The notes below the pieces were generated by a model, which worked only from the letters and a program-made list of their open reading frames with translations, was not told where the DNA came from and ran no database searches. Position numbers and translations under genes: made by a program. A stretch of 64,000 nt of DNA, from NCBI GenBank assembly GCA_001804285.1, contig MHFR01000008.1, forward strand, positions 2,740-66,739, read 5' to 3'. Of the stretch, positions 4,485-46,081 are shown in pieces. The DNA is from Candidatus Danuiimicrobium aquiferis. GTDB taxonomy: Bacteria > Omnitrophota > Omnitrophia > Omnitrophales > Danuiimicrobiaceae. Positions within the stretch are counted from its first letter, which is position 1. Each line of letters begins with the position of its first letter.

Positions 4485-4524
4485 AGATATTTCATTAACG
4501 GCAAATTTTTCAAGAGATGAAGAC

Positions 4525-5346: not shown

Positions 5347-5357
5347 TCACCGTTGTT

Positions 5358-6651
5358 TTATTTTCTTATGTCAATGGGAACGTAATCGGTTCGTTCCGGT
5401 CCCACATAAATTTGCCGGGGACGGCCGATTTTAGCCGGTTTCGACTCGCGCATTTCTTTCCAATGCGTAATCCATCCGGGCAGCCGCCCGATCGCAAACA
5501 TCACCGGAAACATATTGGTAGGAATCCCAATCGCTTTCAGCACAATCCCGCTATAGAAATCCACATTGGGATATAGATTACGCTTAATAAAATATTCTTC
5601 TCTCAGCGCCCGCTCTTCCAGTTTCATCGCAATTTCAAGAAGCGGATCCGTTCCTTTATGCTTCCGCAAAATCTTATGGCAGTACTCTTTAATAATTTTA
5701 GCTCTTGGATCATAGGTTTTGTAAATCCTGTGTCCAAAACCGGATAGCCGTTTCGACGAATTCGGAATCATTGCCTCGCTCAAATATGAATCAATGTTGC
5801 CGCCCGCTTGATGAATTTCTTCTAACATTTCCATCACATCCTGATTCGCTCCGCCGTGGATCGGTCCTGACAGCGCGGAAATTCCGGCGGCAATCGAAGC
5901 ATAAATATTGGCACGTGCACTGCCGACGAGGCGCACCGTTGACGTGCTGCAATTTTGCTCGTGGTCGGCATGGAGAATAAACAAAATATTGAGCGCCCGC
6001 TCCGCGTCCACATCGATGTTAAAATCCTCATACGGAAGCGAAAACATCATGTGAAGAAAATTCGCGCAATACTTCAAATCACGGCGCGGATAAATGAACG
6101 GCTGGCCGATCGAACGTTTGTAGGAATATGCGGCAATCGTCCGCACTTTCGCCATCAATTTAATCGCTGTTTGCTTATACACTTCATCGTCTTCAGCGGG
6201 ATCTTTCGGTGTCGGATGAAAACCGGACAGAGCACAGACAACCGACGACAGAATCACCATCGGATGAGTTGTACTTGGAAATCCGTAAAAGAAATGTCTT
6301 ACATCATCATGGAGCGCGGCATTTTCCGTCAATCCGGCCGAAAACCAATTAAGTTCAGCCTCGGTCGGCAGTTGTCCAAACAAAAGCAAATATGCCGTCT
6401 CTATAAACCGCGAATTTTCCGCCAATTGTTCCACCGGAATTCCGCGGTAACGCAGAATCCCTTTTTCTCCGTCGATATAACAAATCGCGCTTTGGCAGGA
6501 TCCTGTATTGCCAAAAGCAGGATCGTATGTAATATACGATGTCTTTGATCTTAACTCGCTCACATCAATTCCGCTGTCGCCTTCCGTCCCGTGAACGACC
6601 GGCAATTCATAGGCCTTCCCGTCAATTTTTAATTCAGCTTTGTCTGCCACA
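5358..6651 (-). CDS. gltA: Citrate synthase.
   Basis: The protein aligns along its length to type II citrate synthase (…GIPVEQLAE…HADHEQNCSTSTVRLVGSA…GFGHRIYK…DPRA…). The ORF track extends the N-terminus to 6788 through a palindromic repeat (translation PHPNPLPEGEGRGEG). A GTG at ~6649 preceded by AGAGG is the more likely start. Confidence 0.88.
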
Positions 6652-6850: not shown

Positions 6851-9800
6851 TTAAGCCGCAACTTCAACGGCTTTCTTGACTACCTGGAACATCTCAAGGA
6901 TCGTCAGGATATCGCCTAAACGTTCTGGATTCAGCGATAAACTGAGGCGGGAACCCGTTCCGTCTACAAGGCGTATTAATAGATAATCATCCGTAAGCTT
7001 CCTGATAGTTTCGGCATCGGGCTTCCCGGCCGCGACAAGGCCGAAGGCAATCTGCGCTCGCAGATATTCAGCAGGGACAATTTGTAGAGAATTGTCGATC
7101 AAAAATCTGTGCGCCGCCGTTGCAAGATATCCATTAAATACACTCGCCATTCCCGCAACCTGCGCGGTATTGCTTCGCCCCTCAATCGAATTGAAATCAC
7201 CTTTCTGTCCGCTCTTCAGATACAGGCTTTGCGCCTTCTGAAGCAGCCGGTTTACCCAGCGCTGGTCTTTCCTGTAAGAACCACTGCGGACAACTTGATC
7301 AACAAAAGCTGCGTAATCATTCACTTCTCCAAAAAGAAAAACACGGCTGTTAAATTGCTGATTTATTTTTTCGCGGATGTTTTCAGGAATTTTAAAAGGC
7401 GCGGCGAAAACCATAACTTTATACGGATGATTCTCCACCATCGATTGAACGCCCTCAAGCACCGCCGACAGATCATCAACGTTCATCTCCGCCAGAACCG
7501 GATAATAATTCACGCCAAATTCTCCGTGCCGCACAAGAGCAATCCGCTCGAACATTTTAATTTGTTGCTCGGTATATTTTTTTCCAAGCACTTCAAATTC
7601 CTTTTGCGTCAAACCTTGTCCCACCGATTCTTCCGCAAATGCTTCCGGAATGACCTGTCGGTAAATTTCATTCGCCATTTTTCCTAAATGAAGTCCGGCG
7701 ATCCGCCTCACCGCCCGCGCCACGTCGACCTGCGAACGAATGGATTCCGTTTCGAGTTCCGGGTTTCGGGCGGCCTTGCGAACATCATTGCGAGATATCG
7801 GCCCAACCACGGCCAGAGCGAAAGGTTTGCGCGCTACGCCGCGCGATTCAGAACGGGACATTCCTGGCAATACTACTTGAATCAAGCGAAGATGTCGTAA
7901 CCTGTCTACCGATATCATATTCCGTGATATCGATGGATCTAACTGAGAAATATCCTCATCCACCATCACAAGCCACGCCCGAGAAAGTTCTGAAACAGGA
8001 ACAGCTTTTTTCGTCTTCGCACCTTCAAATTCGTACCGCTCAGCAACAGCCTTTGTCATTTCAAACAAGACTCCTAGACGGCCCGGCACTAAATCGGTAG
8101 CGTTTTCAATTGAATGAAACAGGTATTGAAAATTAGCCCATAACGTATTCTCCGAAGGATCATTTGTTTTAACAGCACCTGTTTCGAGAGCATCCTTTAA
8201 ACCATCTTCCGCTTTAACGCCCCGATAAAAGAAACCTCCCTCTATATAGTCATCTGTCCGTGTCCGGGGATCCGGGAAATAATCAAAGAAATTAAATGGC
8301 ACTGCCCCTCGGATTGCCGCTTCAGCATCCTCCAGAGACTTAACTTCCGGCTTATCAGAAAACAAATCAGGCATCCTCTGCGTCTTCGGCGTCTGCCGCA
8401 GCTCGGCCCGTCCGCCTTCGGCGGGAGTTGCAAGTTTCGAGTTTAAAGTTTGAAGTTTACTTCTTCCATCCAACTTCGAACTTCGGGCACTTTGCCGCCC
8501 TTTAGGGGTAACTTTAAACTTTAAACTTGATTCATTGCGCGCTTCGGCCCTTGGTGGAGACGAAGTCGACGACGTCATGGAACGCGCAGGTTTTGTTGCG
8601 AAAAATATTAATTGTTTTCCTCCTCTTGAATCTGTTGCTTCCATTATCTTGATATGTCGAAAGCCATTACGAAAGAAAAGCCCTTTTAATTTTTGTGGTG
8701 TATACATTTCATAAAATCGAAAACCAAGCCCCTCAGATTGTCCGCTTGGATTTTTTGTGTCTAACAGATGAATGCCTTCTCCCGATTTTACAAGTCCGAC
8801 ATAAATCCCTCTTACCTTAAGCGCTTCGAAAGCATTACGCACCACTAAATCTGCTCCATGTTGAGAATCAATAATAGGAATGTGATGAAGACTGGCCCAA
8901 TCACGGACAACATCAAATGAAGATTCCTTTTCTTCACTTAACGGATCTTCCATATCCATAGTTTGGAGCTTGATTTGAGGCGAAATAACGTGTTTACGCA
9001 AATACGCAATTGATTCTGCAGCATTATCAATAGCGGTAACAACGACATCGCCTCGTTTGCTAAACCAGCTCAAGTCCCGGAGTGATGGACCTCTTTCCAA
9101 AATTTGATATGGCGGCTTAAAAGCTGGTAGAACTTTTTTAGAATGAGATCTTCGCGCAAGCCGAATAAAAAGTTGCTTCAACGCTGTTAAGTCATAAGAT
9201 TCAAAACTCGTTCGGAGCTCCGTGAAAAAATGCGGATTTTTATTATACGTATTACGGGTCACTTCTTTTATTTGCTGCCAAAGTGATACTGCGCGTTTAA
9301 AGCGATCCATCTGCTGTAACGAGGAACTGCTGTTAAGAGTGTCCATCTCTAATACAAATTGTTTGTATAGGTCTTCAACGTTGCGCAGATCGGAGAGATG
9401 CCTCAATGCATCTCCCGAAGCAGTGCTTGAATCAGCCGAATTCAAGCGCATCTCGGAGCGCACCTGAGAACGGGTAATGGCTGCGGTAACCGTTTTTTCA
9501 ATTTCTGGATCGTGCTTTAACGCTGACAAATACGGCATAGTTATCTTGGCTTCCGAGGCAATTCTCATTTGAGTAAGATTGCGCTCGTTCTCCAATCTTT
9601 CAATGGCTTTCTTGAGGCGTTCGACGGCTGGCTTTGCCCTTTTGTTCTTTTTGATTCCATATTTTTTGAGATCACGAGGGTACGCGCTAAAATGATCCGA
9701 AAGACCCACTTGACTGACGCCAATAACTTCCGCCGCTTCCGTAATATTCAAACCTTGAAGCGCGCCCTTGCCATGTTCTTCGAGACGTTGCGGAATAAAA

Positions 9801-12800: not shown

Positions 12801-15800
12801 TGCCCTCCTTCTTGAGAAAAAAGAGGCGGACTTAAAACAGGCCGGCCTTCGCGGTCAAAAGAAATATGGATGCCGAGACTCATCACCTGATCCATTGACA
12901 TATCTCGGACATGAAACGCTGTCGTTCCCCAAGAAGCCCCGAAAAATCCTTGCCCAAAGTTTTCTTTCTTGAATAACACTCCCGTAATTTCCACGGCATC
13001 CATCTCTTCACCGTTGACAACAACCGGTTCCTTCAACGCTATGCGAATGGTCCGGCCTTCGGCCTTGTTTTCCGTTAATTCTTCGTACCCGATTCCCTTC
13101 CATTCATCCGGATAATAAGCAGAAGCTTTTTCGATTTGCGCTTGCAGTTCCGGTGTTAAAGCTTTCCATAGATCGGGAACGTAAGTCATTTCAAGGGGCC
13201 GTGAGCCTTGCCATTCGGCCGTTATTAATGGATCCGTGATGGGGTCAACCACATTTTTTCTTGCCGCCAAAAAGGCGAAGGTGTCTTCCGCCAGCCATTT
13301 CGCTATTTTTTCTCCAATCCCGCGGATTTTATTTTGGGGATCCTTCAGCCATTTCTTGAATTGATCCGCATGATCAAAACTCCGCTCGCCGATTTTCGCA
13401 ACCAATTCCTGAATGACTTGCTCTGATTTGACACCGCTCGCTTGAAACACTTGAGCAATTCTGGCTTTTATCACTTCATTCCAGTCAATCGCACCCGCCC
13501 AAGTTTTTTCCGCACTATCATTATTGAAGCGACCTTCGGACCGACTAAATAACTCTTTATATTTATCCACATTAATCGTCACATAATCATCATAATTGGC
13601 ACGACGACTATAAGTTTTGACATAGCCTTCCTCTTGCAAACGGCGCAAAAAGCCTTCCATTGAAGATGCCTGAAAAACCCATGAAGATATGTTACGAGTC
13701 AGAGCCAGATAGCCTACAAGCAATTTCATAATGCCCCTTCTTTGAGGCATACTAAGTGCTGAAATAACAGAAATTGATCCGGAACCATCAATTTTATAGC
13801 CGACAGAACCAACCACGTTACCATCCGATAGGTTCATCACCGCTAAATGAAACATTTCGCCGGTCCTGGAATGGTGAACAATGAGAAATTTGACAGAAGT
13901 ATTCAAAATTTGTCCCACCGCTTGTTTTAACCGCTGTTCAAGCTCCGCATTCTCTTCCAATTCCCGCATTTCGGAGCGGCGAGCATCGGAATTCTGTCTC
14001 GGTCTTTGTCCGGATAAATACTCATCAATTGAAACTCGCCTTAGTATTTTTTTCAAGCGGTTAAACGTATGCCTGATCGAGCCGATAGAGATACCGGTTC
14101 TTTCTGACAAAGCGTCCATGCTCGAGAGCACAAAACCTTGATCGAATTCTTCCAAAATTCGGTTTGCGACCCGTCGCTCTTTGACCGGGAAAGATTTAAT
14201 CGCTTCATCAACGATTATTTCCAGCATGAAACGCCGTTCCGTTTCGGACGCCCGAAAATCATCAATGGCGGCTATCAGAACCATTTTGCCGCCGATATTA
14301 GCCCAATCCTTCCTCAACCCTAATTGCGAAAGGGTCAGGAAATCTTTGTACGACCTTCTCTCTTTCACAAGACCAACTTCTTCATATTTGATCTTGTTAG
14401 CATTTAACGCGTTGTATATGACGAAACGATTTTCAACTAAACCTTCCGAGAAATCGACCACGTTTCTGACGGTGGGCGCAATGTCCGCCGGCACTTTAGA
14501 AACCAACATTTTAAGAAAACTTTTCCGCTGATCCTTGGTTTTCGGCAACACTCTTTCCCTTACCAAGCCGAGCTCTTCGTAATTCATATCGTGCGTATTC
14601 ATCGCCGATCGAATTTGCCGGGCAGTAACCGTTCCATTCGATTGATCCGCCACATTGTTCACCGTTGGCGGAAGCCCAGGAGGTAATTTCTCGATTAGTC
14701 TGCGCAAGAATTCTTTCCATTCTCCTGTAGCTCTGGCTGGGGGCAACGCTTTCTCCATCCCGACTTCCTGGAAAGAAATTGAATGAAAGACAATCGCTGC
14801 GCGAATTTGTTCAGGCGTATGTTTTCCGCCGGAAAAAGCTGCGACATTTCTCGCGGTTCGCTTCAATCCGGAAGGAATTTTCCCTGCAATAGCAGAAAGT
14901 TCGGCAATCCATTCTGAGCGCGACCTTTTCAAATCTGTTTCATTTATCATCCCGACTTCTTGAAAAGTAATTCCGTGGTAATATAAGGCGTGCCAAATTC
15001 CAACCCCCGTTACTTCCCGGCCCGAAATATCCGCAACATTACGCGTCGTAGGTAGAGTGCCGGCCGGTAATTCCGCGACCCTGGCTTTTAAATATGCAAT
15101 CCATTCCTCTCGAGACTTGAACTCCCTGGTACTACGGGCCATTCCAACAGTTCTGTAAGGAATATCGTGCTTCCACAATGCCATTGTAATTTGCCGCTCT
15201 GAAAGAAAACTTCCCCACACGCCGGCGAGAACTTCAGGTGTTGCCGCTCTCCAGTGAGGAAGAAGTGTCACAAGGCCTTTTAATAATCTGATCCACTCAT
15301 TACGATTTTTTTTCTTCTTTCTCAGCAGCTGTTTAAGCTCTTTCCCGATAGCGGGACTCACCCGTTTTTCTCCTCGCGTGTCTCTCATTCTCTTTGCGCG
15401 ATCAGCGAGGCCATAATTCTGGATGCGCTCCCAAACTGTTGTCATATTGACATGCATACGTTTTGCCATCTTTTCCAAATGAGCATGATATTTTGCAAGC
15501 AATTTTTTAAAACGCTGCAGTTGAGAACGGTAACGCGCGGCGTTTTTCTCAAGCCCGAATCGCCTGATTTGACTGACAATAGCAGAACTCTTAACTCCTC
15601 CTAAATCTTCCGAGACTAATTTTAGATTCGCGCCTCGTTTTCTTAAGAGCTGATTCAGCACACCTTTGGTCACCCATCCAGCTTGTCTTGCCCGCAGCTC
15701 GGCCCTTGGCGAAACACTTTGTACACGCCAAGGACTCTCGTTCGTTTCGATTGATGACTGATTGGAACTTTCTTTATTGTTACGAACTTCGGAGCGATGC

Positions 15801-18800
15801 CTCAATGCATCGCCCGAAACAGTCTCGGATTTAACCGAAATCCGAGGCGGCTCGGACATCGCAACGGTTGGTTGCGATGCCGGAGCAGTCCTTAACTCCG
15901 CTCGCGATTCGTCGTGAGCTTCGGCATGGCGTGCTTGACTCTGCATAATACCTGTGCTAAATTTACTACCAATATGAGTACGTTGGTCCGAAAATATATC
16001 AGTATCAATCCTGCTATCTGCCATGGAAAGCCCTGTTTTCGCGGTACCCGGATTCCTGTATCCTTGATCCTGCAAATGCTTGAGGGGGGCGACTCTGTCA
16101 GCGCCATTCTGCGCGGATATCCTTCCCTTTCCAAGAAAGCGATCCAGGCTGCGTTGGAGTTTGCCAGCGAAGTCATTGACAAAAACCGTTTGAGCGCCCG
16201 TGTCCTCGCTGCTTAAATTTCGAATTCTCGCCGACGAAATGATCCACCAAGATGTTATCCGGTTGTTGATCAGTTTAGGAAGCGACGTTATCAGAACTCC
16301 AAAAGGATTCAAAAATGGCCAGGTATTCCAACTCGCAAAAAAAGAAGCGAGAATCTTACTCACCCAAGATAAAGACTTTTCCGACAGTAAACGATATCCA
16401 CCCTCTCTGACTGCAGGAATCATTTGCTTGCGCGTTTTTCCGCCGACCATCGCCAATCTGCTATCCCATGTCAAGAAATTCATCCATAAAACAACACCGG
16501 CTGACATCAAAGGGGAACTGACCATCCTTTCATAAAACGCGATCCCACGCCGCGTTTCGGAACGGCTTTCGCGTTCCTGCTCCCTTTTTGGCTGACTGTC
16601 ACCTGTTCGCAATCCGGAGGCATCAAGAAAACCACCTTGACTGTGGTTGAAATACAGAGCGACATCACTCAGTTTGCCACTACTGACAATAAGCCTTAGC
16701 GCTTCAAACTGGCCATAAAGAAAGCGCACATTTTTTTTCAATGCCCGGTATTTTGCTGTACTGGGAAACCAAGCTAAAGTTGCTTCGATTATTCCAAGTG
16801 CGGTATCCAAAGCATGTCCGACCATAATATCTCCCGACAAAGAACGCTCCTGCCTTTTTCTGCCGATTTTTCTGCCAACGATCGGATAAACAACCTCGGA
16901 CAACGGTTTCTTAATCTTTTCCAAAGCCGTCATGAATTCGGAATCCAATTCGCCGACTTTTGCTGCGTCACCCGCGTATCTCTCAACAAGCGTTTCAAGT
17001 TGAGGCCGCAGCCGGTCAATTTGATCCAGCACTTCAAGAATCGCTTTTTCATCCTGTTCAAGTCCCTCAACCTTGCCTTGCCTCGCTTCGGATCTTGATG
17101 CGGTACCTTGACTAAAAACACCTGCCGTGATAAACTCCCGCAGAGGTAAAACGAATGGACCCTTTAATCCAAAAATATCTGATAATTGACTCCAAAATCC
17201 AACACGGAAAACCTTGCTTCCGGGGAACCCGGATTCCGGTTTATGCGGTACTTGAGCTCTTAGAGGGCGGGGTGAAACCGGAAGAGATTGTGGGCGAGAA
17301 TTATTATCCGAATCTAAGTCTTGAACATATCCGAATTGCATTGCGCTTTGCAGCCCAATGGGCGAAAAACCAAGAATACTTTCCTTTTGAACAAACAACC
17401 TGAGCTTTTGAATGAAATTCCTCATTGACGAGGACATTCCCCTCAAACTCCTCAAAACACTTCTAACGCTTGGCCATGACTGTGTCCGCGCAACACCGGC
17501 TTCATCGGATCTCGAAGTGGTTGAGCGAGCTGAAAAGGAAGAAAGAATTCTGATCACTCTGGACAAAGACTTCACTAATATCACGATATACCCGCCGACG
17601 AAATTTAATATCGTCCGAATCCAAATCCATCCTCCGTATGCCGATACGATTATCGAAGCATTCCAAAAACTCTTAAATTCCGTTCCAGCGAAGGACTTCC
17701 AAGGATTAATCATTCTCCAGCCCAAAGGCCATATCCGCGTCATTCCGTAAACACGTTCCCGCGGCACTTCTAATCTCTGATTTTCCCGCGCTTCGGCCCT
17801 TGAACTGACTGTCATCCTGAGGGAGTCCGAAGAACGACTCTCCGCCACTAAAGCGTGGGCGGATCCGGCCGCGCTGTTTGGCGGAGAAGGATCTCCGGTT
17901 ATTGTCTCTGTCCGTGGCTTCCCCCCGGGCAAGCCCGGGGCACCTTTCAAAATCTGGCCTCGCTTGGAATTTTCTCTTTCCATGCTCGGCACGCCCTTCG
18001 GGCGCCATTCACCCCCGGGCAAGCCCGGGGAGCTCAAAGCGGCGTTTAGATCCTTCGACTCGCTCCGCTCGCTCAGGATGACTCCGACCCTACGCAGCTC
18101 GGAGCGGATCCCTTCTTTGATCCAAATAGATCCATCCGTCGGCTTTCCATACGACTGGCTGTCATAGAATGCACTTTCTATCATGTTCATGTCGAAAAGC
18201 TGGTTCATCCGAACACGGTGATATCCTGGGAAATTGGAATCACCCCCTTGGAAAGAAATCACGATCGGCGGGAATACAGTCCCTTCAGAAAGTATCTGTC
18301 CAAAATTCAAATCAGCTTTTTGTAAATAATAAGTTGTCCGCTCTCCGAAAATATCTCTGAAATCACCTTTCTTTGAAAATTCACGTTCATGATAAACAAT
18401 CGTCCGATTTACCGGTGGCATCCGGTTGCCGTATGACCACTGAAAACGGATCTCATAGTCATTCGGATTTCCACCCTTAACCACTTCAATATTGGTTGCC
18501 CCCAACGCTTCTAATTCCCACAATATCGGGATTTTGGTGTTTCCGATTGCCCACAAAGCCGGATAATCAATATAACCTTTTACAAGTAAACTCGAGCGGT
18601 AGGCCTCCTTCAATTCCTTGACATCTTTCTCCTGCACATCAAAACCAAACGGCAACGCATCATAGAAATGCATTTCTTTTGCATCCGTCATCAAAAGAGG
18701 CGCGATCACATCTGCGCCAGAAAACGGATAACTTAAAACGCCACCATCAAATCCGTTCTTCTTCAATTCCGCGTGGATCTTCGCATAAGCCAAAGAGACC

Positions 18801-33800: not shown

Positions 33801-36800
33801 ATATGTTCCTTCCCCCGCATGAACGAAAAGTACACGATGGGAGAAAAAATCATTGCTGCCGCGGCGGCCAGCGCACCAAGTAATCCTCTGCGAGAAATTC
33901 CTGTTTTAAACGAATAGGCGATTGCTTCCTGCTCTTCACGCTTCAATCCTTTTATGCTTGTCCCCTGCAAAGCCATTTCGAATTGTTGCCGAGTTTTGAA
34001 AGGACGCTTCGCGAGAATCCACTGAGCCAATCGATCTTTCACTGATTGATCCAACAAATTTAATTGAGGGATGGCATCCACGTACCGCCGAAGCAGTTCC
34101 GGCTTCATTAGATTCACATTCGGTTTTTTAACTCGCCCAGTGCCTTCTGAAACTTGCTTTTCTTCCCCTTGCCGAACTTCGGACATCGCAACGGTTGGTT
34201 GCGAAAAAGTTGTCGCCTCAGCCAAAGGCTGATCCGCCCCTGGCGGAGAAGCAGTCCTTAACTCCGCTCGAGGTAAGGGCACTTCGGCCCTGGCAGCGGC
34301 AGTCTTTTGCTCGCGCCACAACTGCCAGGACACTTCGGCCCTTGGCAAAACACTTTGCCCACGCCAAGAACTCTCGTCCGTCGCAATTGATAACTGGTTG
34401 GAACTACCTTTATGGTTACGTACTTCGGAGCGGAAGAAGCGGTTGCTCCATGTCTGCGTTCGAGCCTCCTTGGGCTGTGTCATCCACTGCCAGGTCCTAC
34501 GAATTCCTTCCGCCGGCGTTACAAAATCATTTGGATCGAGACCAAGAATTGCCTTCATACGTCTCGTATCCATAAGCAAGCGAGGAATTTCTTTTGATGC
34601 AGTATCGAGGATGAGCGCGGCATCAGAACCCGAAGCATCAATAATCGCCTGCGCAACTTCTTTGTCCGAATAGCGCCTTCGCGCGCCGACATTGATTACT
34701 CTCTGATCTCTCAACTGATCCAAAGACGAAACAGCTGCGCGTACAAATGCACGTGCAACATCATCAACGTACGTTAGATTCTTTCTAACCGGTGAATATT
34801 TCAGCTCTGCCGCGCCATGGGCAACTTGATAAAGATACCGATGAACTAAACGGCGGTTCAAATCCGTTCTTGCGGAATCATAGGCTGGTCCGTAAACATT
34901 GCCAAGACGAAGCGAAACACCATTTTCATATTGATTAATGATTCTTTCGCAAATGCTCTTGGCGAGGGCATCCAACTTGGTTGCGTACTTTCCTGGCGGA
35001 GGGCGCGTGCTGAGAAAATCGCGTATTTCCTCCAATGTTTTCTTCTGATCCGCAGCAGAGGAAAGTCCAATAAAAAACTGAACCATTGTCTGAACCCAAG
35101 TTTCAAGTTTGGGTTCTAACTTTAATCCAGTTTCCTTAAGCAAACGTTTCCCTTTTAAATCCATAAGATCATACACGCGCATAGTGGAAGCAAAAACGAT
35201 ACGAGGCTTATGCGAGCTTTCCTGCGCTGTTTTGACAAAAATTGCCGCGGGGAGAACATTCCTATACATAAACTCGGAAATGTCCGCATCTTTCGCGCCC
35301 GCAGCGCCCCACATGGCCAAATGGAAAATGACGTCATTTTGATTCACCAACGCCCGCTGTAAATGAATGTCTGGGAGAGTCCCGACCTCAATTCCGGCCT
35401 TATCCTGATAATCAAAGCGATAGCCACTGAATGGTGCAAACTCTTCCTTTAACAGAACAGGCGTGGTTCGCTTCGCCATCGGCAATACCATATCCATCAA
35501 TACCGAACCAATGTTTCCTCCTGCGCCGGTGATCACAACTTTCTTATCGCGCAGCTCGGACATCGCAACGGTTGGTTGCGATGCCGAAGCAGTCCTTAAC
35601 TCCGCTCGAGTTAAGGGCACTTCGGCCCGTTTAAAACTTTCCATTGATAACTGGTTGGGACTACTTTTATTGAGGCGAACTTCGGCACGCATAACGGTTT
35701 CTCGTTTCAGTAGCCGCTGAACACCTTCGGCCAGCATAATAGATTTAATCAGCATACCGGCCGAAGAAATAACCGGGAACCCGTAACGCTCTGAAGCCAA
35801 CAGTATCCGATTGATTTTGGGAAACATACTTTCGCCACGGCGATGAAAACGCAAAATAGACGCTATCTCGGCTTTAAGACCAATCACGTCAGGATGAGAA
35901 GTCTCCGTGTCAACGGCATACCTTTCAACAAAAGCAAATATATCCCGAACGATATCGGTATAGGGTGTACGGATAATGAAACCATCCGCTTCTGCGGTAT
36001 AAACCATCCGGTCAACCATCAGGTAAGGCTGTTTATATTGCCATTTCGCTGGAGGATTCGACAATAAAGAAGTAATATCTGCTTTAAGTTTCTCTTCATT
36101 ATAATTTGAAGCGGTTTCTCCATGTTTCGTAAGCTCACCAACAATATCGTCAACCACTTCTGTTGTCTCTTTATTCTCGAGCTCCTTGAGAATCGCATTG
36201 ACCGCTTCATCAAAATCTTTGGTGCTGTCATAAGTTTCTCCCTGTAGCACCATCTTCACAAAATCTGATTTGAGGTCAAATGCTGTTTTGTCTGTTTGAG
36301 TGTCAGCCCATTGCACGAGGTTGATTAATCGCGAATTAAATTTCGGATTGGATGCGGATTTTTCAATTAAAAATTCAGAAAACTTATCACGCACTAACGC
36401 CTTTTGTTGATCATTAGAGGAATAGCGTCTGCTCCTCGATCGATACCAATCGGTTTGCCTATACTGGTCTATAAATTCTTTGAAAGCAGTCTCAATAAAA
36501 ACGATAAGCGCTTCATCGTCATCCGTCAACTGAGGCTTTTTAGTTTGAGCGTGAGATTCTCCTGCGGATTTCTGTATAAAATTCGGATCACGCTTATCAA
36601 CCCATGGGAAATAGAACCTAAATAAGAAAAATCGTAAAATCTTCACAACGAACGGAATCGACAGCAGGCAACCAACGAGCCACAAGCCAAAACGAGAAAG
36701 TGGCTTTTTCCCATGCTGGAGGATTCTGACGCCAACGCTCACCAAATCCCGCCTCAGACTACCCGATAAATATCCAACTTGCCCAAAGTCAAAAAGTGAA

Positions 36801-39800
36801 ATCATCCCTGTTAATTCTTCCCCAAAAATATTGCCGGGATGCGGATCTGAATGGAAAACCCCATCTGCAAGTGCCGCTAAGACAATGAGCAAAATCAATC
36901 TTCTGGCCGTTCTCCTCCGCAATAAAGGATTTTTCAACTCAGTGGCTTTAATACCTTTAACAAAACTCATTTCTAAAACATTCTCATTGCTTCCGTAAAT
37001 GGCGGGCTTACTGAATCCATCCGGATAGTGTCGAACGAGCTGTCTTGCCTGTTTGGCTTCGACATTCATATTAAGTTCGCGACGGACCGCTTTTTCAAAT
37101 TCCTCAAAAAACCGGGAAGGCGACATTTGAATAGCATCAGCTCCGGTAAATTTCTCCTTCGAGTTTTCCAGTGTCTTAATCACCTCTCTGATTTTTTCTA
37201 AACCGCTTAGGATTTTTCTTTTTTTTGCAGCAGGTACGACTTTCAAAACAACTTCTTGCCCATCGTGAGTTTTCGCAAGAAATGTGTCTGCCACCGTTCC
37301 GACTTTTAATCTTTTTAAATAAGGCATTTCGATTGCCGCACCCTCGATGGGCACCAACGCTTCGACAAGCGGTTTCCCATAGTAATTTTCAACGGAACGG
37401 ACTATCTCCCCCATTTCAGCGGGCGTCCCTTGATCTTGAAAAACCTCAAACGCCTCACGCATTCCTTCCGGCACCAAGCCTTCCCTCGTACTTAAAAACT
37501 GTCCCACCTTTTCAATTCCCGCAATTCTGAAAAATTCCGCATACGGTTGGGCGGCATGCCATTCCAGAAACCGGTCTTGAAGATCTTTTCCGTTTCTATC
37601 GAAAAGAAACAGTTGAAATCCATTTAAGTCCTTTGAGTATGAACTTCCGTCAAATTCACTCAAAAAATCTTGCTTGTTGGTCTCTGCGAAATATCTCCTT
37701 GCCTGCTGATAAAAATAAGTTTGGTCCTGGGAAGGATTCTTTCCATGATATTCCCCAAATGTGTTTAATATTTTTTCCTGATCACCCGCCGATAATCTTG
37801 AAAAGAACTCCCGTAATAAAAACTGCGCCAATTGAGGCAATGATTTAAGATGTTCTGAAAATCGGGCTATTTTCTCCATATCGGGCGGTTTGGCTGTGAA
37901 AACCCAATGCGCAGCATCCTCTTCTTCAATGTGCGGTGTTTGCATCCGACCCGCCAAGTAGCCGTCAACGCTGTAAGGACTAACTCCCAAAGGCAGGGTA
38001 CGGGCCGATGATTGAGGCGCTGAATCGGCAAAAATGGTCTTAACCCGCCCTGTGAATCCGGTCCTGCTGGCAATATAGCCCTCAACCGAGTGAGGTGACA
38101 AAGAAACGACGTCAACTTTTCGAACCTGTGGAACACGGCCCAAACTTTTCAAAACTGCTTCTGCGTTGGATAGATCATTCGGCGTGTTTAAATCAAGCAG
38201 GCCGTTTTCCTCTTTCACTTCATACATTCTTAACAAGTCCGTTCCCATAAAGAAACGGAAAAGAAAACCCGTTCTTACAATTGCGAAACGATTCAACTTT
38301 TTCGTTTTTTCATAATAAGCACGGCTGGATAGCGTATCTTTATGGACAGGGCCTTTAAACCATTGGATTAATTTAAATATAAATCTGACGAGTTTAAAAA
38401 CAAATGGGTGAAATAAATGAATACTGGCAGCAACTTCATGAATATTTTCCAGTTCATCGGCAGTTAAGTAACTGCCATCTGAAAGCTTGAGGCTTCCACC
38501 TTGCTCTTTTAAAAGGTCAATCTCCCGTTGTGTTGCGATTGTGTCAAATCTTCCGTTTCTTAATCGAACGATGCGGTCTACTCCATGCGGCTGAGTAAGA
38601 TGAGTGGTTACAAAGGTATAAAGCGCGGGCCAGCCACGCGGCGGTGAATGAATATGCATGGCATCAAAAATAATTTTCGGATTCGTAATGATCACATCTG
38701 CCGGCACGATCAATATGTGCTTGGACCTAAATTGATCTTGATATAAATCATACGGGGTAAATGCGGCATTCAGAGTACCAATATTGACCGGCACGACGGT
38801 GCTATGCGTCTGTTTTGCTGCTTCACTCACTCGAGAATCCGCTTGCGGATGCTCACCATTCAATACGGACACAAAAGATGTCAATCCGATTTCATCTGCT
38901 GTATCCAAAAAATACCGCATAAGCGGCTTCCCTGCCACATTTCTAATTTGTTTCGGCGTGGTATCCCCATCTGAAAACATCCGGCCGCTCGTTCCAGCAG
39001 CTAATTGAATTGCAACCCAAGAACTTAATTGATCTTTTCTGTCATTTTGTTCGCTCAATTTCTGAAAATCATAATGATGGACATCAAGAACAAAACGATA
39101 ATCAGGGATGAAAGGCGTAAACAGTGATGCTATCCGATTAGGAACAAGTAGGTGCGCTAATATCCATGCCACAAACCAATTCTTTTGATCAATCCGCGTA
39201 CTTCGAAGCAAGTGTTGCTGTCTGGCTTTATTAATGTCCTGTGCAACAAAAAGAGTTTTGGCTGCCCTTACCTTTTCGAAGAGAAATTTTGAAAATGTTC
39301 CTTCAATGATGATCATGGTATTCGGTTTTAGTGATTCGGAATTGATCATGTCTTTATTTAGGGCTTGCGAGAAGGATTGAATCTTTTCTTCATCAACATA
39401 ACAATTCGCAAGATAATGGATGAGTATTTTTTTCACGGTTTTACTTGGAATAACGGAAGCAAACAAACTGAAGGCAAAACCAAATAAAATCTGAAATACT
39501 AATTTAAATCCCCATGCCCGTGTTCGAGAAAAATCGCTCGTTTTGACCAGAATTACTTCACGCCCTCTTTGTTTTAAGAATGCCTGATATTCTTTGGCAA
39601 ATGTTGATTTCCCAACGCCAGGGACGCCATCTATCACAAGAATGAGATTCCGTTCTTTATCCTTCAAGAGTGAGGATGTTAATTTCTCAAACACTTGAAT
39701 ACGTTCAGAAACTGTTCCCACAGCGGCAGAAGATTCATTCCGTAGCTCGGAGCGAGGATTCATTTCCTCCTCGCCTGGAGCAGTCATTGACTTAACCAAA

Positions 39801-42800
39801 GTCAAGGGCATTTCGGCACGTCCGCCTTCGGCGGGAGTTTCGTTGCGCACTTCGGCCCTCGCAAAAGACTGCGAGGACACTCCCGCGCCGCGATCAATCA
39901 TCGACTTGGCACTATTTTCAATGTCGCGAGCTTCGGCCCTTGCAGCGGCATCATCTGGTCTTCGCCGCAACTGCAAGGACTCTTGTGCGTTTGGATCGCC
40001 CAAAACGGGGACAGGTTCTGATTTCACTGATACAGAACCTGTCCCCGTCTTTGGCGTGAAGTTGCGCACTTCTGACCGTCCTTGATTCAAATTTGAAATG
40101 AGTTTTTCGACACGCGGACGAACGGCTGACCAATTTGCATCGGCTTGAATCAAGTCGAGTAAATATCTGATTCGCGCTTCGACCTGACTGCTCACACGGG
40201 TCAAATACGGAATGTGATATTCGATTAATGAATTCACGAGCGCTTCGTTTTCTGAACGCACAAGACTGCGAACGAGAAGCGCAACAGCATCATAAGGATT
40301 ACCTTGATGGAATGGTTGTTCCTGATTGATCCAGCGCGTCACGTCCTTTGCTTGAATTTGATCAAGCTCACCCGGAACAACAAACCCGGCAATCATCAAT
40401 TCATCCGCCGGATCGTTATAACGCGTCATCCTGCGCGCACGGTTAATCGCAGCCGCCGCTTCAAGCGTTAGCAACTCACCGATCGGCACTTTAAAAAGCA
40501 TCTGCCGGTAAAGCTCAATATAATTTTTCGTTCGATTCAGCCAGCGATTATCCTGAATCAGCACTTGATACCGAATTTCACGTTCCGCCGCAGGATGATC
40601 TGCAAAAACCGTATAATGTTCGCGAGCCGATTTGAACCACTCAACGGGATTAAACAATTGAAACGCTTCAGCAAAATGAATATCGCCTTTATTAAAAGTA
40701 ATGGCACTGTCTTTCAGACCGTCCCGCCACGTTAAATGCCGAGGGACGCCGTACGCCGCAGCTTCTTGATTGCTGAGTCCGCCCGGTTCGAACGAAGACG
40801 GCATTCCGAACCGATCGGACCCCGAATAAATCAGTTCATAAAACGGTTCACTCGGTTCCACACGTCTGCCGATGTATCGAAATTGATTCGGAAAGCGAGC
40901 AGCGATATCGCCAAAACCTTGATCGTAAAACCTCCCTTTGTCCACAGCGCCGGCAATCACAAACTGTAAATCCGGATTCAATACCATGGCAACCTCAGCA
41001 GCCCGAAGTGCCCCCCGTTGATTTGTCCACGCATAGTCTTGAAGCTTTTTTTGCTCTTGGGCAGTAAGTTCATGGGCAATCCCCATTTCTTCAAAAAATC
41101 CTCCCGCTGTCCGCAAAATACCGGACTGATCGCCGCCGCGCCAAATTTCTGCCAGCAATAATTGATGCCCTTTTTGATCTCCGATCCGGTGCAGCATCGA
41201 ATAAACAAACTTTTCGCGATTCGTTTCTAACCCCACGGCCGCTTGAAGCCTTGCTTTTTGCAAGGGTTGGATGAACTCCGTAACCATGGCCGCAAGTTTT
41301 CTGCGTTCGGAGTCGTGCCCGATTTCCTGAAAACTGCGGATTGCCAGGTCCGGACGCGCCAGCACTTGCTCCAGCCAGTCCCGGTACTCAGGCCAGTCCT
41401 TATTCCATTCGTGATCATTCATTTTCTCGCGAATGGAATCTTGCACGCTAACCATGTTGAAGAAAGTTATCTTAAGTAATTGTTCGCGGCGGCTGAGAAT
41501 CGCATGTTTTTTTTGCCGATATTCGTCCGCACTTTTGGCTTGAATGTCTGAAATCTTACCGAAGGCGTCGTTCGGTTTTAAGATACGGTGGATTTCGCCG
41601 TAACGGTCATCATTTTCAATCACATTCTTAAGCGCCGCGAAAACGGCTGACGGGTTATCAAGCACGCACCGAATTAAATTCTCAAAACTTGTAAATGTTC
41701 TTTTCATCGCCGGCATTTTCATTATCTTTTTCATTTTGCGCCTGAGGTCGTGATTTTCGGAAAACATTTTTTTCATAAACGTCCGCTGACGCCCCACTAA
41801 ATCGAAGCCGTTCGGTGTGCCGTCATACGCACCCTTCTTTTTTGTCCCCGTCTCCGGATCAACAACTTCCTCTTCATTCCTTTGATTGAGCAGCGCGACT
41901 AAGTCCCCAAACTCTCTCGTGTACAGATCCACTAAACTTCGATCGTGATAGCCGCCGCTGACGGTTCTGAAATGGGCCGCTGTTTTAACTGCCGTATAGG
42001 CCGGATTAATGACATTCCACTCGCCAATATTCACTAAAATATCCCAGTCGGCGGACGGCCACATACCCAGATCGCTTACGATCATCGCATCACGTTCGGC
42101 TTCGTTATCCGCCGTTATACGGCCCTGATAAGCCCAATGGAGACTATGCCCGGTCGAAAGTACTTTCGTTCTATTCAAGTGCGGATCATGTTTCAATCCG
42201 GTCAAACCCGGATCGATGCGATCTCTCCCGTCAAGATATGCTTTCACGTAAGCGGTCGCCCAATCATTTGTATGAATGACGCCGGCGTGAATATTCATCT
42301 CGCGAATCGCAAGAAGCGTCCCCAAAGAAAGCATCCGTGCAAACCGGAGTTTGAAATTTTTCTTCCCGTCATACGCACTCGTGTCTCCTACTCTCAGGCG
42401 ATTGAAATAGCGGTCGTTTTCCAAATAAAGAACGCGGACTCCCTCGATATACGCTTCATAAATTTTCATTTCGGCGGATTCTTCCCCGTGTGCGCCGAAT
42501 TTCACCGTCACCGCTCGGCCGGTATCTTGCGGATGATATTTTGCAAACATCGTATGCTTTTCATTCCAGAACATCGGAACAACAACCGTCACCGGAATTC
42601 CTAATCGTGCAAGCTCTTTCGCCTGATCGCTGACATAAAAGCCAAGACCGCCGCTGCTGACGCTCCAATCCGATTCCGGAGAAGATAAAACGACCTCTCC
42701 GATATCATGTCCTCTCAATATCTGAATCGCATGAAATGACGCGTGCGGCGTAGCAGACCTGGTTTCCTCCGCAAATCGGACAGCAATGTCGATCAACATT

Positions 42801-45800
42801 TTGTGAATTCGCTCTTCAAACTCTTTACGATAAATCACAACATCATGAAATAAACTCGTCAGATCCCCGATCCGGATATCCGGATTCTTCACGACCAAAT
42901 CAGACAGCATATGGAATAATGACCCGAAAACAGCCGGATTGCTCCCGTTGATTTCAAGCGCCCGCGTAAGTTCACGCGAAGCGAAACTGCTCTCGAACCG
43001 GCCCTGAGAACCATATTTTTTGTAGCGGAGAAGCGAGTCTCTCAGGAGTTGCTGATACGCGGCGTTTCCAAATTTCGGAATCGTTTTACTTTTCCGGAAG
43101 AAACGAAGCGCCTTCGTCTCAAAAATATCGAGTGGCTTCCGAAGTCCCAAACCGAGGTTAGCTATTTCCCTCCCCGTAAACTGCATCCTTCGGATTCGTC
43201 GACTCTTGGCGCCAGAAGAAGGAATTTCGCGTAATTCATACACCGCGTCATCATCAAACAGGCCGAGCCCTTTTCCGTTCTGCATCGCGTCATCCGGATG
43301 AAAATTAATATCCGCCGCATAACGGGATCCTTGATGTGAAAGAAATAGAAAAAACTGATCGTCTTCAATCGGCTGGGCGATTCCTAAAACGCGGTCATGT
43401 CCGGCATCAAACGCAATCGGCCGATGAGATTCGAAAGCAGCTTCCAAATCCGGAACCCGCTTCGCTAACTTATCAAAATGCTCCTCATACCACGAAAGCG
43501 CGGTTTGTCCACCGGTTCTTACTTCAGACCGGGACATCGAACCTTCGGTCCCGCGGTGGTCCTCTTTTAAATACATCGTAATAAAAACAATTTTTCCGCT
43601 GACGCGCTCATTAACGCGATCTCCCGTCCTCCTGACAAGCCCTTCGTAATCAGCTACTTCGACATTTATGAATTCGGTTGCGTCGCCATAATTTTTCAAA
43701 TACCGAAGGAGTGATTGAACAACCGCTGCATATTCGGCAGGTGGAAAGGAGAACCAGCGCAATTCGTCTAAATCAGGGTGGCTCCATCCAGCTCCACGAT
43801 CATAATGAATCGAAAACGCGTTGATTCCGTGCGAATTATTTCTGTTTTCTGTCATTAAAACCCGTCTCAACTCTTCCATGCTGAGAACCCGCCCCACATG
43901 CAAAGACTCCACGTTATTGACTTCGCGTATCCCTCCTGTTTGAAGGCGGAGAAGCCCGGGCTGATGAGACGCCCATTCCGGCTGGCCACTCAACGCCCTC
44001 GCTTCGGCCCTTAACGCCGATTCATTCGGCGTTGTGAAGGGACGAGCTGTACTCGCAGCAACCTTCTCGTCAATACGAGGCTGCGAGTGCGCTTCGGCTC
44101 TCGCTTCATGAGACACGAGACGCGAAACAGGAGACACGTTTTCACTTACCGCTTGTCTCATGTCTCTTTCCCCTTCTATGCGCACCTCAGCCCTCGCTAA
44201 AGAGTCATCACCCGCAGACAGCCCATGAACTTCAATCGCCGGACCATCCGAAATTAAGTCTGTTTTTCCCAATTCGGTCAAAACACTCTGGATGACCGCT
44301 CGAATTTCACTCCGGTGATATTCGGCATCTTGGAGACCAATTTTTTCGCGCATCACATTCAGCGGAATACGCGCCGGACTTGACTGCGGAATATGCGAAG
44401 TGGCCGGCTCAAAGCTTGGCTTTAACAACATCCGTTCGTCATAGATAGTTTGCGGAACAATAGAATGAATTTTCGGAGAAACAGTGAGAAACGGAACGGA
44501 TCGGCGCTTCATCATAGCTTCAAATCCATCCGTATGAAAACCGCCGGTAACCAAGATTGATTTTGCATGCTTTCTTTGATGCCTGGCCCTGAGATAATTG
44601 CGAAACATCATTTTTTCCCGCTGAAATGCAAGCGTGTAGAAGCGGAGGCATTCGGTAAAGAGCGCGTTGAACTGATCATCATTGAAATTCGCACTCTTGC
44701 TATCCCCGCCCAGCTCCTCTGTCATTCCCGCGAAGGCGGGAATCCAGCTGGATCCCCGCTTACGCGGGGATGACAACCGTTCCATCATCACATCCGGCAT
44801 CAACTCTTCTTTTCTTTTCACCACGCTTTGAAACTCGTCCCGTGTTAATTCGAGAGCAAAAAGAGATTTCAGCAATTGATAATCGTCGATCGTTTTGACA
44901 AACGCCCGCTCTTTTTCGTTCGTAGTCAATGCATTTAAAATTTCATCCGTCAGCTTTTTAGTTTCTTCGTGAATTTTATTCGCATCAAGTTCTTCGGCAA
45001 GTACCCGCCCAGACCAATAATGAACCATGCGGGGATAGGATGAAAAAGCAAAACCCTTATTTGCCGCTTCCAAATAAAAAGATTCCAGAAGTGCACGGGT
45101 ATTTGTCAACTGTCCTTCGTCCCCGGGCTTCTGAGAATTTCGTTTAAAAAGATATTCATACCGGGTTATCCAGCTTCCTAAATCGTGCTTTCTGATCCAG
45201 TCACTCAGCTGCGTCTCTTCCTTTTGATATTCAACTTCCGGAATCTTCCGGGATTCTTTTTCTAAATCCTGCATCGTAAAATACCGCACAAGCTGCGGAT
45301 GTGTGATTTGATGTTTGGCTTCATGCAAATCCAAATCTATAAATTTCGCGGCCGACCTCCCCAAAAACTCCAGGTAAGAGGCGAACTCGGCGGAATCATT
45401 TCGGTAACTTACATATTCGCGCACAAATTCCCTCAGGTTTGAATTAAGCGCGGTTGCCTCAACATTCTTTAATTGTTCTGCCACGCTCGCCAAATATTGC
45501 TCTGCGTTTTTCTTTTGCTCGTATACTTTTCTGAAACTGAATAAGTTTTCCCGGTAAAGATCCGCGTCTTCAAGCCCATAAAGCTTGACACTCCCCTTTT
45601 GCTGCAGGTGAAATAATTCAACCCCGCCGATTTCTCCGATTTCCAGTAACCGTTCGGCGACTTTTTTATTCAGCGAATCGTCTTTAAAAAAACGGAGCAA
45701 GTCGGGAGAAATTTCACCGGCGAGACCGCCTTCCAGAAAAATCGTGTCAAAGCCATACTCGCTTTTCAGGTGAGACAGTAAATTTCCGATATTTTTCTGC

Positions 45801-46081: not shown

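Follow-up and report, generated by a model that had tools for sequence, protein, structure and literature searches.

Giant genes of Omnitrophota and comparable modular proteins

Open reading frames (ORFs) that exceed 20 kb occur commonly in all classes of Omnitrophota (Seymour et al. 2023, PMC10066038), and the one considered here, a giant ORF of 39.2 kb, is located in a 64,000-nt stretch of the uncultivated groundwater bacterium Candidatus Danuiimicrobium aquiferis (NCBI GenBank assembly GCA_001804285.1, contig MHFR01000008.1, positions 2,740 to 66,739), hereafter referred to as the window. Two further studies have dealt with the products of such genes. West-Roberts et al. 2023 (bioRxiv 10.1101/2023.11.21.568195) described an 'Archaeovorin' type, in which GT5 glycogen-synthase-like, GT1 and methyltransferase domains abound and no domain can be identified in the N-terminal regions; it is stated there that the cleavage points are unknown, which prevents a domain-wise analysis, and 'one product or many?' was left as a question. 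Nielsen & Lui 2026 (bioRxiv 10.64898/2026.06.07.730766) collected 916 proteins of at least 10 kaa (thousand residues), with PF08323 in 153 of them and a signal peptide and/or transmembrane (TM) segment in 94%. A 'multi-enzyme metabolic cluster' class, their class 1, was distinguished, in which many distinct Pfams tile the chain, none being dominant, and a sugar-metabolism module (PF08323 + PF00534) is present. The nucleotide tandems of the repeats were found to be dissolved, and 80% of the sequence clusters were singletons.

The giant ORF of the window fits these descriptions. It exceeds 20 kb and 10,000 aa, lies in an Omnitrophota genome and carries signal-like and TM segments as judged by hydropathy. 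PF08323, PF00534 (weak), PF03109, PF01370, PF12804 (weak), PF13649/PF08241 and helix-turn-helix (HTH) families are distributed along its chain, as in the multi-enzyme metabolic clusters, and the combination of GT5/GT1 glycosyltransferase (GT) with methyltransferase domains is that of the Archaeovorins. A Pfam-free N-terminal region, repeats diverged at the DNA level and a near-unique sequence are likewise shared with the published giants. Unlike the Archaeovorin type, it measures 13 kaa instead of at least 30 kaa and has no type II secretion system (T2SS) or carbohydrate import genes nearby; HEAT, SecA_DEAD, C39/S8, NUDIX and dockerin gave no Pfam match in it (E<=0.01 for tiles, E<=1 for modules without an assigned family). 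Thus, taken as a giant gene alone, it is one more, rather small, example of a type known since 2022-2023, and the statement of a first-pass annotation of this DNA that such genes are mostly described in a few uncultivated lineages agrees with its placement in Omnitrophota.

Taking into account that the ORF is short, clean and backed by several assemblies, the organisation of a whole protein family can be read from it: an invariant head with a predicted hydrolase fold, interchangeable cargo, a short lineage-specific motif at the boundaries and a fixed C-terminal end. The conserved N-terminal head and the junction motif, which the first-pass annotation had missed, are its most informative features. 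In West-Roberts et al. 2023 and Nielsen & Lui 2026, as far as a term search of these texts reaches, linkers, junction motifs and a conserved N-terminal domain are not mentioned, Cys content and the C-terminal end lying outside that search; Seymour et al. 2023 was searched for other terms only. That the gene is real, that it follows a family plan and that its punctuation is kept at the protein level are conclusions which, taken together, we hold with high confidence.

Beyond the giant genes, comparison can be made with the MARTX toxins and with viral polyproteins. Conserved ends, a mosaic of enzymes as cargo and, if the processing proposed below takes place, the processing between modules are analogous to MARTX. 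The giant differs from these toxins in the absence of RTX or glycine-rich repeats and of a C80 cysteine protease domain in Pfam scans, in the presence of only 9 Cys, in a putative N-terminal Sec-type signal in place of the architecture of a type I secretion system (T1SS) substrate, and in the metabolic type of its enzymes. With viral polyproteins it shares a motif of 4-6 residues at every module boundary, uniform within each protein and lineage-specific around homologous modules; it differs from them in being a cellular bacterial gene, with ~20 modules and a family of more than 7,000 clusters, and in that its cleavage is here something we infer.

In-frame palindromic repeats occur in coding regions, as exemplified by the Rickettsia palindromic elements (RPE) and by repetitive extragenic palindromes (REP) and bacterial interspersed mosaic elements (BIME). 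The palindromes of the giant gene resemble them in being short, GC-rich copies of a genome-wide family that lie between genes as well as translated within a coding region, at a tolerant loop and in the linkers; in contrast to them, they are concentrated at the module junctions of one giant gene, alongside a protein-level motif.

A single 39.2-kb gene

The giant ORF is a genuine single gene. As the first-pass annotation had stated, its 13,076 codons are uninterrupted: the window contains no Ns, and the frame of the gene has 0 internal stops, as opposed to 447-796 in each of the other five frames over the same DNA. With stops at 3.4-6% per codon, an open frame of this length would be expected by chance with a probability of ~e^-450. 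In addition, the codon-usage log-likelihood picks frame 0 in all thirteen 3-kb blocks, and the GC content of the codon positions follows the order GC1>GC3>GC2 in 13/13 of them, domain-free blocks included in both cases.

A check for mis-assembly across the repeat arrays had been recommended in the first-pass annotation. Since Tandem Repeats Finder detected no DNA-level tandem repeats in the gene, a collapse across these arrays is of no concern. Independent assemblies agree with the window. The 9.8 kb at the 5' end are identical in three assemblies (ENA L001, NCBI L002 and JGI L005) and show one single-nucleotide polymorphism in L003; L004 spans just 5.9 kb of this part, its sole difference being an 18-nt N-run. 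The 3' end is identical in six assemblies (9.8 kb in L007-L011, 7.3 kb in L012 and 1.3 kb in L006). All of these assemblies are clonal, the 18 differences of L004 being Ns, and they provide no strain variants for a ratio of nonsynonymous to synonymous substitutions (dN/dS). An independent gene call of exactly 13,076 aa exists in the 87.8-kb ENA scaffold ANAN16-1_SAMN03842439-scaffold_313.

In NCBI assembly GCA_001805325.1, by contrast, the call for the giant gene stops at 9,377 aa, and one extra locus tag is present between the same flanking genes. Taking into account that the metagenome-assembled genome (MAG) scaffolds from this population contain N-gaps, a scaffold gap is the likeliest cause; either such a gap or a 90-nt indel polymorphism is probably responsible for the shorter call. 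Several MEGAHIT contigs end on either side of a pair of perfect, GC-rich twin palindromes located in one of the linkers (Table 1), and two assemblies, L008 and L010, cross this site in frame. An exact 32-mer near the break site had no match in the genome or metagenome contig collections, and a homology search with aa 9,301-13,076 returned one distant relative only, with zero self-fragments.

Head, cargo and tail

The giant belongs to a family of head-cargo-tail proteins that is very large and so far without a name. When aa 1-5000 were used as a query, 41 relatives of 2.8-7.8 kaa were retrieved, four of which are labelled Candidatus Omnitrophota/Omnitrophica and one Elusimicrobiota. With the exception of P0004, which is matched only via a 93-aa repeat array, they align with the giant start-to-start (40/41) over aa ~5-560 at 21-33% identity, and the remainder of each protein is different. 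A profile constructed from 19 heads recovered 10,115 cluster representatives among 1.84 billion, 7,040 of them at E<=1e-30, and the head is N-terminal in 149 of the 150 top profile matches. Other searches with the head were negative: as a single-protein query against genome contigs it revealed no related loci; against Pfam it gave nothing at E<=1 except a noise-level TerB_C match, with TraB (PF01963), Erythro_esteras (PF05139) and Cofac_haem_bdg (PF04187) unmatched; and the head profile found nothing relevant among PDB sequences.

The chain starts with a K-rich, signal-like segment, whose Kyte-Doolittle peak covers aa 11-32 and which is modelled as a helix at 4-28, followed by an AxA-like site judged by eye. 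An N-terminal hydrophobic 15-mer is present in 151/180 relatives, with AxA-like sites (again by eye) after the core. The AlphaFold model of the head, with a predicted local distance difference test score (pLDDT) of 79.9 and a predicted template modelling score (pTM) of 0.74, has six strands in its alpha/beta core, which is preceded by an N-terminal helix and split by a helical insert of ~330 residues.

The TIKI/EreA/ChaN/TraB superfamily is defined by a parallel beta-strand core flanked by helices and by a 2His/2Glu motif (E-x-H ... E ... H) (PMC6254334). The head is similar to its members in the parallel beta-sheet core with helices, in a His-Glu pair 28 residues apart (H89-E117, the spacing of H85/E113 in Bcr135 and H3902/E3930 in RRSP; PMC6254334) and in a distal invariant His. 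Residues H89, E117, R488, G513-G514, H516, P536 and Y547 are invariant in 183 diverse heads, and E171 and E373 are 99% conserved. It is unlike the known members in that the relationship is detected by fold only, that the helical insert is present, that the first Glu is replaced by Asp/Asn, and that it is always fused to a signal-like N-terminus and to kilobases of cargo. On the basis of the modelled fold and the invariant catalytic-type residues, the head is a candidate hydrolase of this superfamily and probably an active one, be it a peptidase or an esterase. One of its loops, variable in the family and of low pLDDT, contains a REP-type double palindrome in frame, which appears as an insertion in the family alignment.

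The cargo forms a mosaic. Behind the same head, relatives have dehydrogenases, helicases, kinases, NAD synthase, MutS and others, and the modules of the giant find different partners: P0117 and P0001 for the GT, P0002 for a short-chain dehydrogenase/reductase (SDR), P0004 for the 93-aa repeats, P0200 for the HTH array, and P0035, P0064/P0177/P0034 and P0073 for others. About half of the modules have no relative among the 205 proteins examined.

Two further traits extend over the family. The 9 Cys among the 13,076 residues of the giant (0.07%, against 1.24% in neighbouring proteins) represent an 18-fold depletion, and the median Cys content is 0.09% in the 41 relatives and 0.07% in 142 representatives. 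Moreover, 104 of these 142 end in -AA or -SA, and the C-terminal KKAVEVAA of the giant resembles the RKAVEQAA of P0003. The C-terminal ~150 aa were considered as a conserved family domain and this was rejected, given that 105 tails fall into many clusters and the giant into none of them.

A short motif at the module boundaries

The giant has 40 copies of the pentapeptide R[SA]E[VLAMIT]R, in short R[SA]E[VLA]R. This motif, of which 0.33 copies are expected, with a maximum of 3 in 300 shuffles, is absent from the other proteins of the window. These copies group into ~20 junctions that bracket every recognisable domain, none lying within one. They are found after the head, around the GT module, on both sides of the SDR, before the 93-aa array, on both sides of the HTH array and after the methyltransferase. 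The N-termini of the modules coincide with the starts of free-standing enzymes; for instance, KKVVITGAGG starts 22 aa past a RAELR copy. That the modules keep start sites of their own was ruled out, since an in-frame ATG with a Shine-Dalgarno (SD) sequence after the junctions was found once against 1.6 expected, without enrichment.

The relatives use junction words of their own: ASLG, RSE[ALVM]R, RSEQR, RSENR, EKSYPAG (KSYPAG), SGFGA (GFGA) and GARLA. A 4-mer is repeated at least 4 times in 86/142 representatives of at least 1,500 aa, the commonest being ASLG or RSEx. The same type of cargo may be bordered by different words. Thus, a homologous SDR block is flanked by SLG at 6846/7256 in P0002 and by R.E.R at 3492/3884 in the giant, and a block common with P0035 by GFGA at 5293/5489 there and by the giant's motifs at 9840/10060 here; each lineage's own motif lies within ~15 aa of the ends of the homologous cargo block.

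Several observations indicate at what level the motif is maintained. Both Arg positions use all six Arg codons, and the Glu codons are used as in the gene as a whole. The core hexamer [TG]CCGAR is found 77 times in frame 0, as opposed to 7 and 23 times in the other sense frames and 46 times antisense. In P0003, the [AS]SLG copies are written with unrelated codons (Ser TCG/AGT; Leu CTG/TTG/CTT/CTC), and in P0021 twelve bare RSELR copies show synonymous differences only and no hairpin enrichment around them (z -0.06 vs -0.09). The bare junctions of P0021 and the unrelated codons of P0003 argue that the motif is maintained as amino acids. A systematic role of the motif as the 3' arm of a hairpin was likewise rejected, its pairing probability being 0.48 vs 0.40 at control [SA]E sites (p=0.18), although such an arrangement is true for a subset of copies.

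The linkers of the giant are, in addition, repeated DNA, with up to 98% identity over 117 nt. A REP-type palindrome family, ATTCCCGC-N4-GCGGGAAT / ATCCCCGC-N4-GCGGGGAT, is found between genes at 2816-2835, 50512-50531 and 50584-50603 and also in frame in the giant's head. Assembly L002 differs from the window by a 30-nt indel at 50595-50625, adjoining one palindrome copy. No Rfam family reached the gathering threshold in the window. We read the short motif as a protein-level signal common to the family, and the linkers of this gene as being also filled with REP-like hairpins, which would have accumulated there in this lineage because linkers are tolerant.

In P0035 (7,467 aa), the word SGFGAE corresponds to the reverse-complement translation of DNA encoding LRAEAR, a relation derived from the peptides rather than checked on the P0035 DNA, and from it arises the possibility of one DNA element readable in either orientation.

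Proposed processing of the chain and alternative readings

It is proposed that the signal-like N-terminus would target the chain to the Sec pathway, so that it would be held at, or passed through, the membrane. The junction motif would then be recognised as a cutting site, so that separate proteins the size of a module are produced, in the manner of a polyprotein, and the head could possibly be the processing hydrolase. Considered as a whole, this explanation, a Sec-targeted head-cargo-tail polyprotein including cleavage at the punctuation, comes close to an even chance without quite reaching it. As for its parts, the motif as a cleavage recognition site on an exported or membrane-anchored chain is a tentative reading of the pattern, on the doubtful side of even, and an assignment of the processing activity to the head itself would be rather unlikely. 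In its most specific form, in which the polyprotein would be cut after Sec export or anchoring, by the TIKI-like head or by a genome-specific trans-acting enzyme, to release ~20 cysteine-free enzymes together with peptide spacers, following a grammar shared by more than 7,000 clusters, the proposal is to be taken as unlikely.

The consequences would nevertheless be considerable. The motif supplies concrete candidate cut sites for the published 'one product or many?' question and offers a principled way of splitting giant proteins for structure prediction. If cleavage occurs, the annotation of such proteins and the counts of coding capacity in these small genomes would change, and a large part of the accessory proteome of Omnitrophota would be made as polyprotein cassettes open to shuffling, a strategy so far tied to viruses and a few toxins.

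A number of points weigh against the proposal. Both the cleavage of the giant and the protease responsible are matters that we infer, and an extracytoplasmic site is difficult to square with folds that depend on ATP, NAD, S-adenosylmethionine (SAM) or nucleoside diphosphate (NDP)-sugars and follow a Sec-type signal. Regarding the head, it has no sequence-level match to a Pfam family or PDB entry, the TIKI fold also covers esterases (Ere) and the haem-binding ChaN, and the canonical first Glu is not conserved: the position two before H89 is D in 102, N in 53, S in 12 and E in 10 of the 183 heads. E171 and E373 could, judging from their conservation, be substitutes for it. In addition, the closest heads (P0003 and P0006) use SLG and the giant uses RSExR; the type of motif thus does not track head similarity, which argues against a model in which each head reads its own motif and would fit a genome-specific trans-acting reader. 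A co-evolution of head specificity with the motif, which had been considered, found no support in the clustering of the heads.

The remaining objections come from the DNA. Position 2 of the motif is TCC or GCC in 29/40 copies (gene-wide usage, 15% and 23%), although the flanking Arg codons are free, and hairpin arms account for this bias only in part. Predicted structure is stronger in the linkers than elsewhere in the gene (mean z -1.0 vs -0.19, p=4e-7). Perfect GC-rich hairpins reach 1.79 per kb there, in comparison with 1.23 in intergenic DNA, 0.31 in the modules and 0.21 across other genes; two hairpins recur in four paralogous copies of a linker, with 6/23 pairs kept by compensatory double changes. 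These constraints at the nucleotide level imply that part of the signal may be nucleic-acid based.

Among the alternatives, the one that survives best supposes that the chain is not cut, but persists as beads on a string, that is, as an intact membrane-anchored multi-enzyme scaffold or a cell coat; the motif, recurring in every linker between domains, would there be a structural hinge or serve for docking or modification. The literature on Omnitrophota giants leans towards proteins that stay whole, associate with the membrane and lie largely outside the cell, topologies with signal peptide and TM segments included. In agreement with this, ~10 hydrophobic segments are distributed along the chain, a predicted helix (574-599, pLDDT 76-85) contains the first of the motifs that follow the head, and no classical protease domain was found in the ORF or adjoining it. 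However, a hinge needs no constant sequence of 4-5 residues over 12-40 junctions, swapped wholesale in sister lineages, and some process, enzymatic or of recognition, is needed to account for the near-universal -AA/-SA end and for the invariant residues of catalytic type in the head. An uncleaved scaffold is accordingly possible, but we would not expect it.

A second alternative is that the punctuation belongs to the nucleic acid, the junctions being REP-like or intergenic-like DNA and RNA elements that came to be read through in frame without stops, whether they were left over from operon spacers or invaded as palindromes, with the peptide motif as their mere translation. Their role would be exerted on the 39-kb mRNA (stability, ribosome pausing or RNase processing) or as homology for the shuffling of modules. 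This reading would account for the repeated DNA, the intergenic-like density of hairpins and the compensatory changes in the linkers, for the presence of the same REP family between genes and in frame in the head, for the NCC bias of motif codon 2, for the branching of assembly graphs at a linker palindrome together with the mosaic of cargo between relatives, and for the SGFGAE/LRAEAR relation of P0035, with the limit given above. It is improbable in view of the bare, hairpin-free junctions of P0021 and the unrelated codons of P0003, of a motif pairing that is not significant with a core hexamer that is strongly frame-specific, and of the lack of both ATG+SD enrichment after the junctions and any Rfam match.

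The first-pass annotation had favoured a fused assembly line for sugar activation and modification, which as a cytoplasmic complex would make one glycan product. The GT5/GT1, nucleotidyltransferase, SDR, PIG-L-like and methyltransferase segments do fit NDP-sugar chemistry, and alpha-glucan genes (GH57 branching enzyme, DUF4912 and glycoamylase) are downstream neighbours. However, these domains make up <15% of the chain, the sugar-related ones occupying only about aa 1,100-3,900; the assembly line would explain no more than the first third, ~85% of the protein has no assigned family, the GNAT domain is absent and the PIG-L and P-loop segments are sub-threshold. Moreover, the cargo varies freely among relatives with the same head, and the signal-like start, the hydrophobic segments and the near absence of Cys misfit a soluble cytoplasmic complex, all of which makes the assembly line quite improbable. 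Finally, an assembly artefact or a decaying pseudogene, whether a chimera across repeats or a true gene split near codon 9,377, is barely credible, for the one NCBI MAG with the shorter call and extra locus tag, and the MEGAHIT breaks at the twin palindromes, are outweighed by the independent full-length call, the two read-through assemblies, the ends identical across assemblies from several samples, the lack of DNA tandem repeats, the uniform coding signature, the N-gaps in MAG scaffolds, and a head at one end and an -AA tail at the other that match the family plan.

Cargo modules and repeat arrays

The ~20 cargo modules behind the head were scanned with Pfam and NCBIfam, at first as 1,000-aa tiles and then as motif-delimited modules (Table 1). 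Recognised domains represent ~15% of the giant, and the other ~85% has no match to a sequence family. The first-pass annotation had listed more than ten recognisable domains; the mosaic of enzymes does exist, and five of its members were supported. The glycogen-synthase-like GT is matched by Pfam PF08323 (E=6e-21, above cutoff; PF00534 weakly) and by NCBIfam GlgA over both halves (E=6e-34), and its block is common to P0117 (45-47% identity) and P0001 (34-35%). The UbiB kinase was equally confirmed (Pfam ABC1, PF03109, 1.3e-23; NCBIfam UbiB, 4e-32), as was the SDR epimerase, through Pfam Epimerase (PF01370) and NCBIfam LegB/GalE/Fcl. For the NTP-transferase, the NCBIfam model of the GlmU N-domain (1.4e-11) bears out the assignment, although Pfam NTP_transf_3 (PF12804, 3e-4) is weak and below cutoff. 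The SAM-methyltransferase passes the Pfam cutoffs when its module is scanned alone (Methyltransf_25, PF13649, 28.2 bits vs 27; Methyltransf_11, PF08241, 23.6 vs 21.2).

Three other predictions fared worse. The supposed P-loop kinase is a match at the level of a Walker A motif, below cutoff (Pfam AAA_22/MeaB/KTI12, 2e-4 to 1.5e-3; NCBIfam kinase models, 4e-5 to 4e-3), the PIG-L deacetylase remains under its Pfam cutoff, and a GNAT domain gave no match in the giant at E<=1. Taking into account that all domain scores are far below the NCBIfam equivalog cutoffs (for instance, GlgA 117 vs 328 bits), the matched domains represent divergent members of the superfamilies rather than orthologues of the enzymes whose names they bear.

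The three repeat arrays that had been noticed are real, and exist at the protein level only, with 30-50% identity. The 93-aa helical repeat is confidently modelled without a structural match in PDB, and is common only to P0004, which also has a MutS_V domain. In the HTH-like array, HTH_3 sums to 56 bits with no single stretch being significant, and the array is common to P0200 at 43-50% identity. Apart from the N-terminal segment, the chain has ~10 Kyte-Doolittle hydrophobic peaks, based on hydropathy only; the strongest of them lie in a region with no Pfam or NCBIfam match.

Table 1. Location of the giant gene and of its segments, in positions of the window, with residues (aa) of the encoded chain.
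Feature	Position	Strand	Details
Giant ORF	6851..46081	minus	13,076 codons + stop; ATG start at 46081; 39,231 nt
N-terminal signal-like segment	45986..46081	minus	aa 1-32; K-rich, hydrophobic core, then LSYA/QE (slash, putative site)
Conserved head, TIKI/EreA/ChaN/TraB-like alpha/beta core	44414..45934	minus	aa ~50-556; core split by the ~330-aa helical insert
REP-type double palindrome in head loop	44720..44775	minus	palindrome 44724-44771; peptide SSPRKRGSSWIPAFAGMT; inverted repeat; minimum free energy z -7.5
First junction region after head	43517..44314	minus	motifs at aa 590, 630, 691, 851
GlgA-like GT5/GT1 glycosyltransferase	40499..42691	minus	aa 1131-1861; Rossmann halves 1131-1379 and 1688-1861, ~300-aa insert between; in module aa 852-2001
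Junction linker, chain of hairpins	39740..40078	minus	motifs at aa 2002, 2048, 2075, 2110; z -8.7
P-loop (Walker A) NTPase/kinase-like segment	39497..39694	minus	aa ~2130-2195; sub-threshold
Sugar-1-phosphate nucleotidyltransferase-like domain (GlmU N-domain type)	38522..39016	minus	aa ~2356-2520
UbiB/ABC1 atypical kinase-like domain	36704..37510	minus	aa ~2858-3126, then hydrophobic segments 3128-3157
SDR NDP-sugar epimerase/dehydratase-like module	34469..35542	minus	aa ~3514-3871; flanking motifs at 3492 and 3884
Junction linker with two conserved hairpins	32054..32224	minus	motifs at aa 4620, 4672
All-helical ~93-aa tandem repeats, 16 units	27386..31996	minus	aa 4696-6232
Region without family match, strongest hydrophobic (candidate TM) segments	22814..25255	minus	aa 6943-6973, 7337-7357, 7625-7648, 7712-7756
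Junction linker	22370..22564	minus	motifs at aa 7840, 7845, 7870, 7900; 117 nt 98% identical to linker 15699-15815
PIG-L/LmbE-like N-terminal segment	21536..21697	minus	aa 8129-8182; Pfam 1.7e-5, 25.8 bits vs cutoff 28.2; sub-threshold
Twin palindromes in linker	17923..18033	minus	CCCCGGGCAAGCCCGGGG x2, 90 nt apart (17923-17940, 18014-18033); peptide PGLPGG twice; assembly break point
Junction linker	15692..15904	minus	motifs at aa 10060, 10096, 10126
Repeat array of ~64 aa, at least 4 units	14336..15157	minus	aa 10309-10582; self-BLAST
HTH-like repeat array of ~54 aa, ~8 units	9602..10924	minus	aa 11720-12160; self-BLAST
Class I SAM-methyltransferase domain	8798..9073	minus	aa ~12337-12428
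Last junction, before C-terminal module	8396..8551	minus	motifs at aa 12511, 12558
C-terminal module, without Pfam match	6854..8407	minus	aa 12559-13076; ends KKAVEVAA-COOH

Genomic setting

The proteins flanking the giant have identical counterparts in GenBank, from Omnitrophica bacterium RIFCSPLOWO2_12_FULL_44_17 and sister MAGs, which UniRef names Candidatus Danuiimicrobium aquiferis (Planctomycetes-Verrucomicrobia-Chlamydiae (PVC) group, Candidatus Omnitrophota). Between locus tags A3G33_06675 (carboxypeptidase) and A3G33_06700 (PDZ protein), exactly one tag is left for the giant gene.

Directly downstream and on the same strand (window 1-6650, minus) lie genes for a citrate synthase, a DUF4912 protein, a GH57 branching enzyme and a PBP5-type D-Ala-D-Ala carboxypeptidase with a peptidoglycan-binding domain, followed by the start of a PF10091 glycoamylase. 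This alpha-glucan gene set thus adjoins a giant whose first cargo module is GlgA-like. Upstream, at a distance of 217 nt, a 348-aa protein is encoded (46299-47345, minus), with two PDZ domains and an unassigned N-terminal part of ~180 aa. This protein was considered as the processing protease and discarded, since its matches are to PDZ only and its gene is not conserved beside three relatives. The gene neighbourhoods of the relatives are in general not conserved.

Two-component genes are the other neighbours of the giant, and no T2SS, T1SS, pilus or GH2 genes are present in the window. Further away, at 56277-57962 (minus), a 561-aa protein joins a response-regulator receiver to a FabF-type beta-ketoacyl-ACP synthase; in the NCBI annotation this gene is called at 421 aa, without the receiver. 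At 60946-62329 (minus), an AbiEi-type antitoxin-like gene overlaps a 258-aa ORF without a family match, and both may constitute a toxin-antitoxin pair. On the other side, beyond the start of the window, L007 (19383-20539) and L008 (19383-20536) have IS3-like transposase genes (HTH_Tnp_1 + rve) at ~13 kb downstream of the giant gene; these are missing in L009-L011, the insertion being strain-variable.

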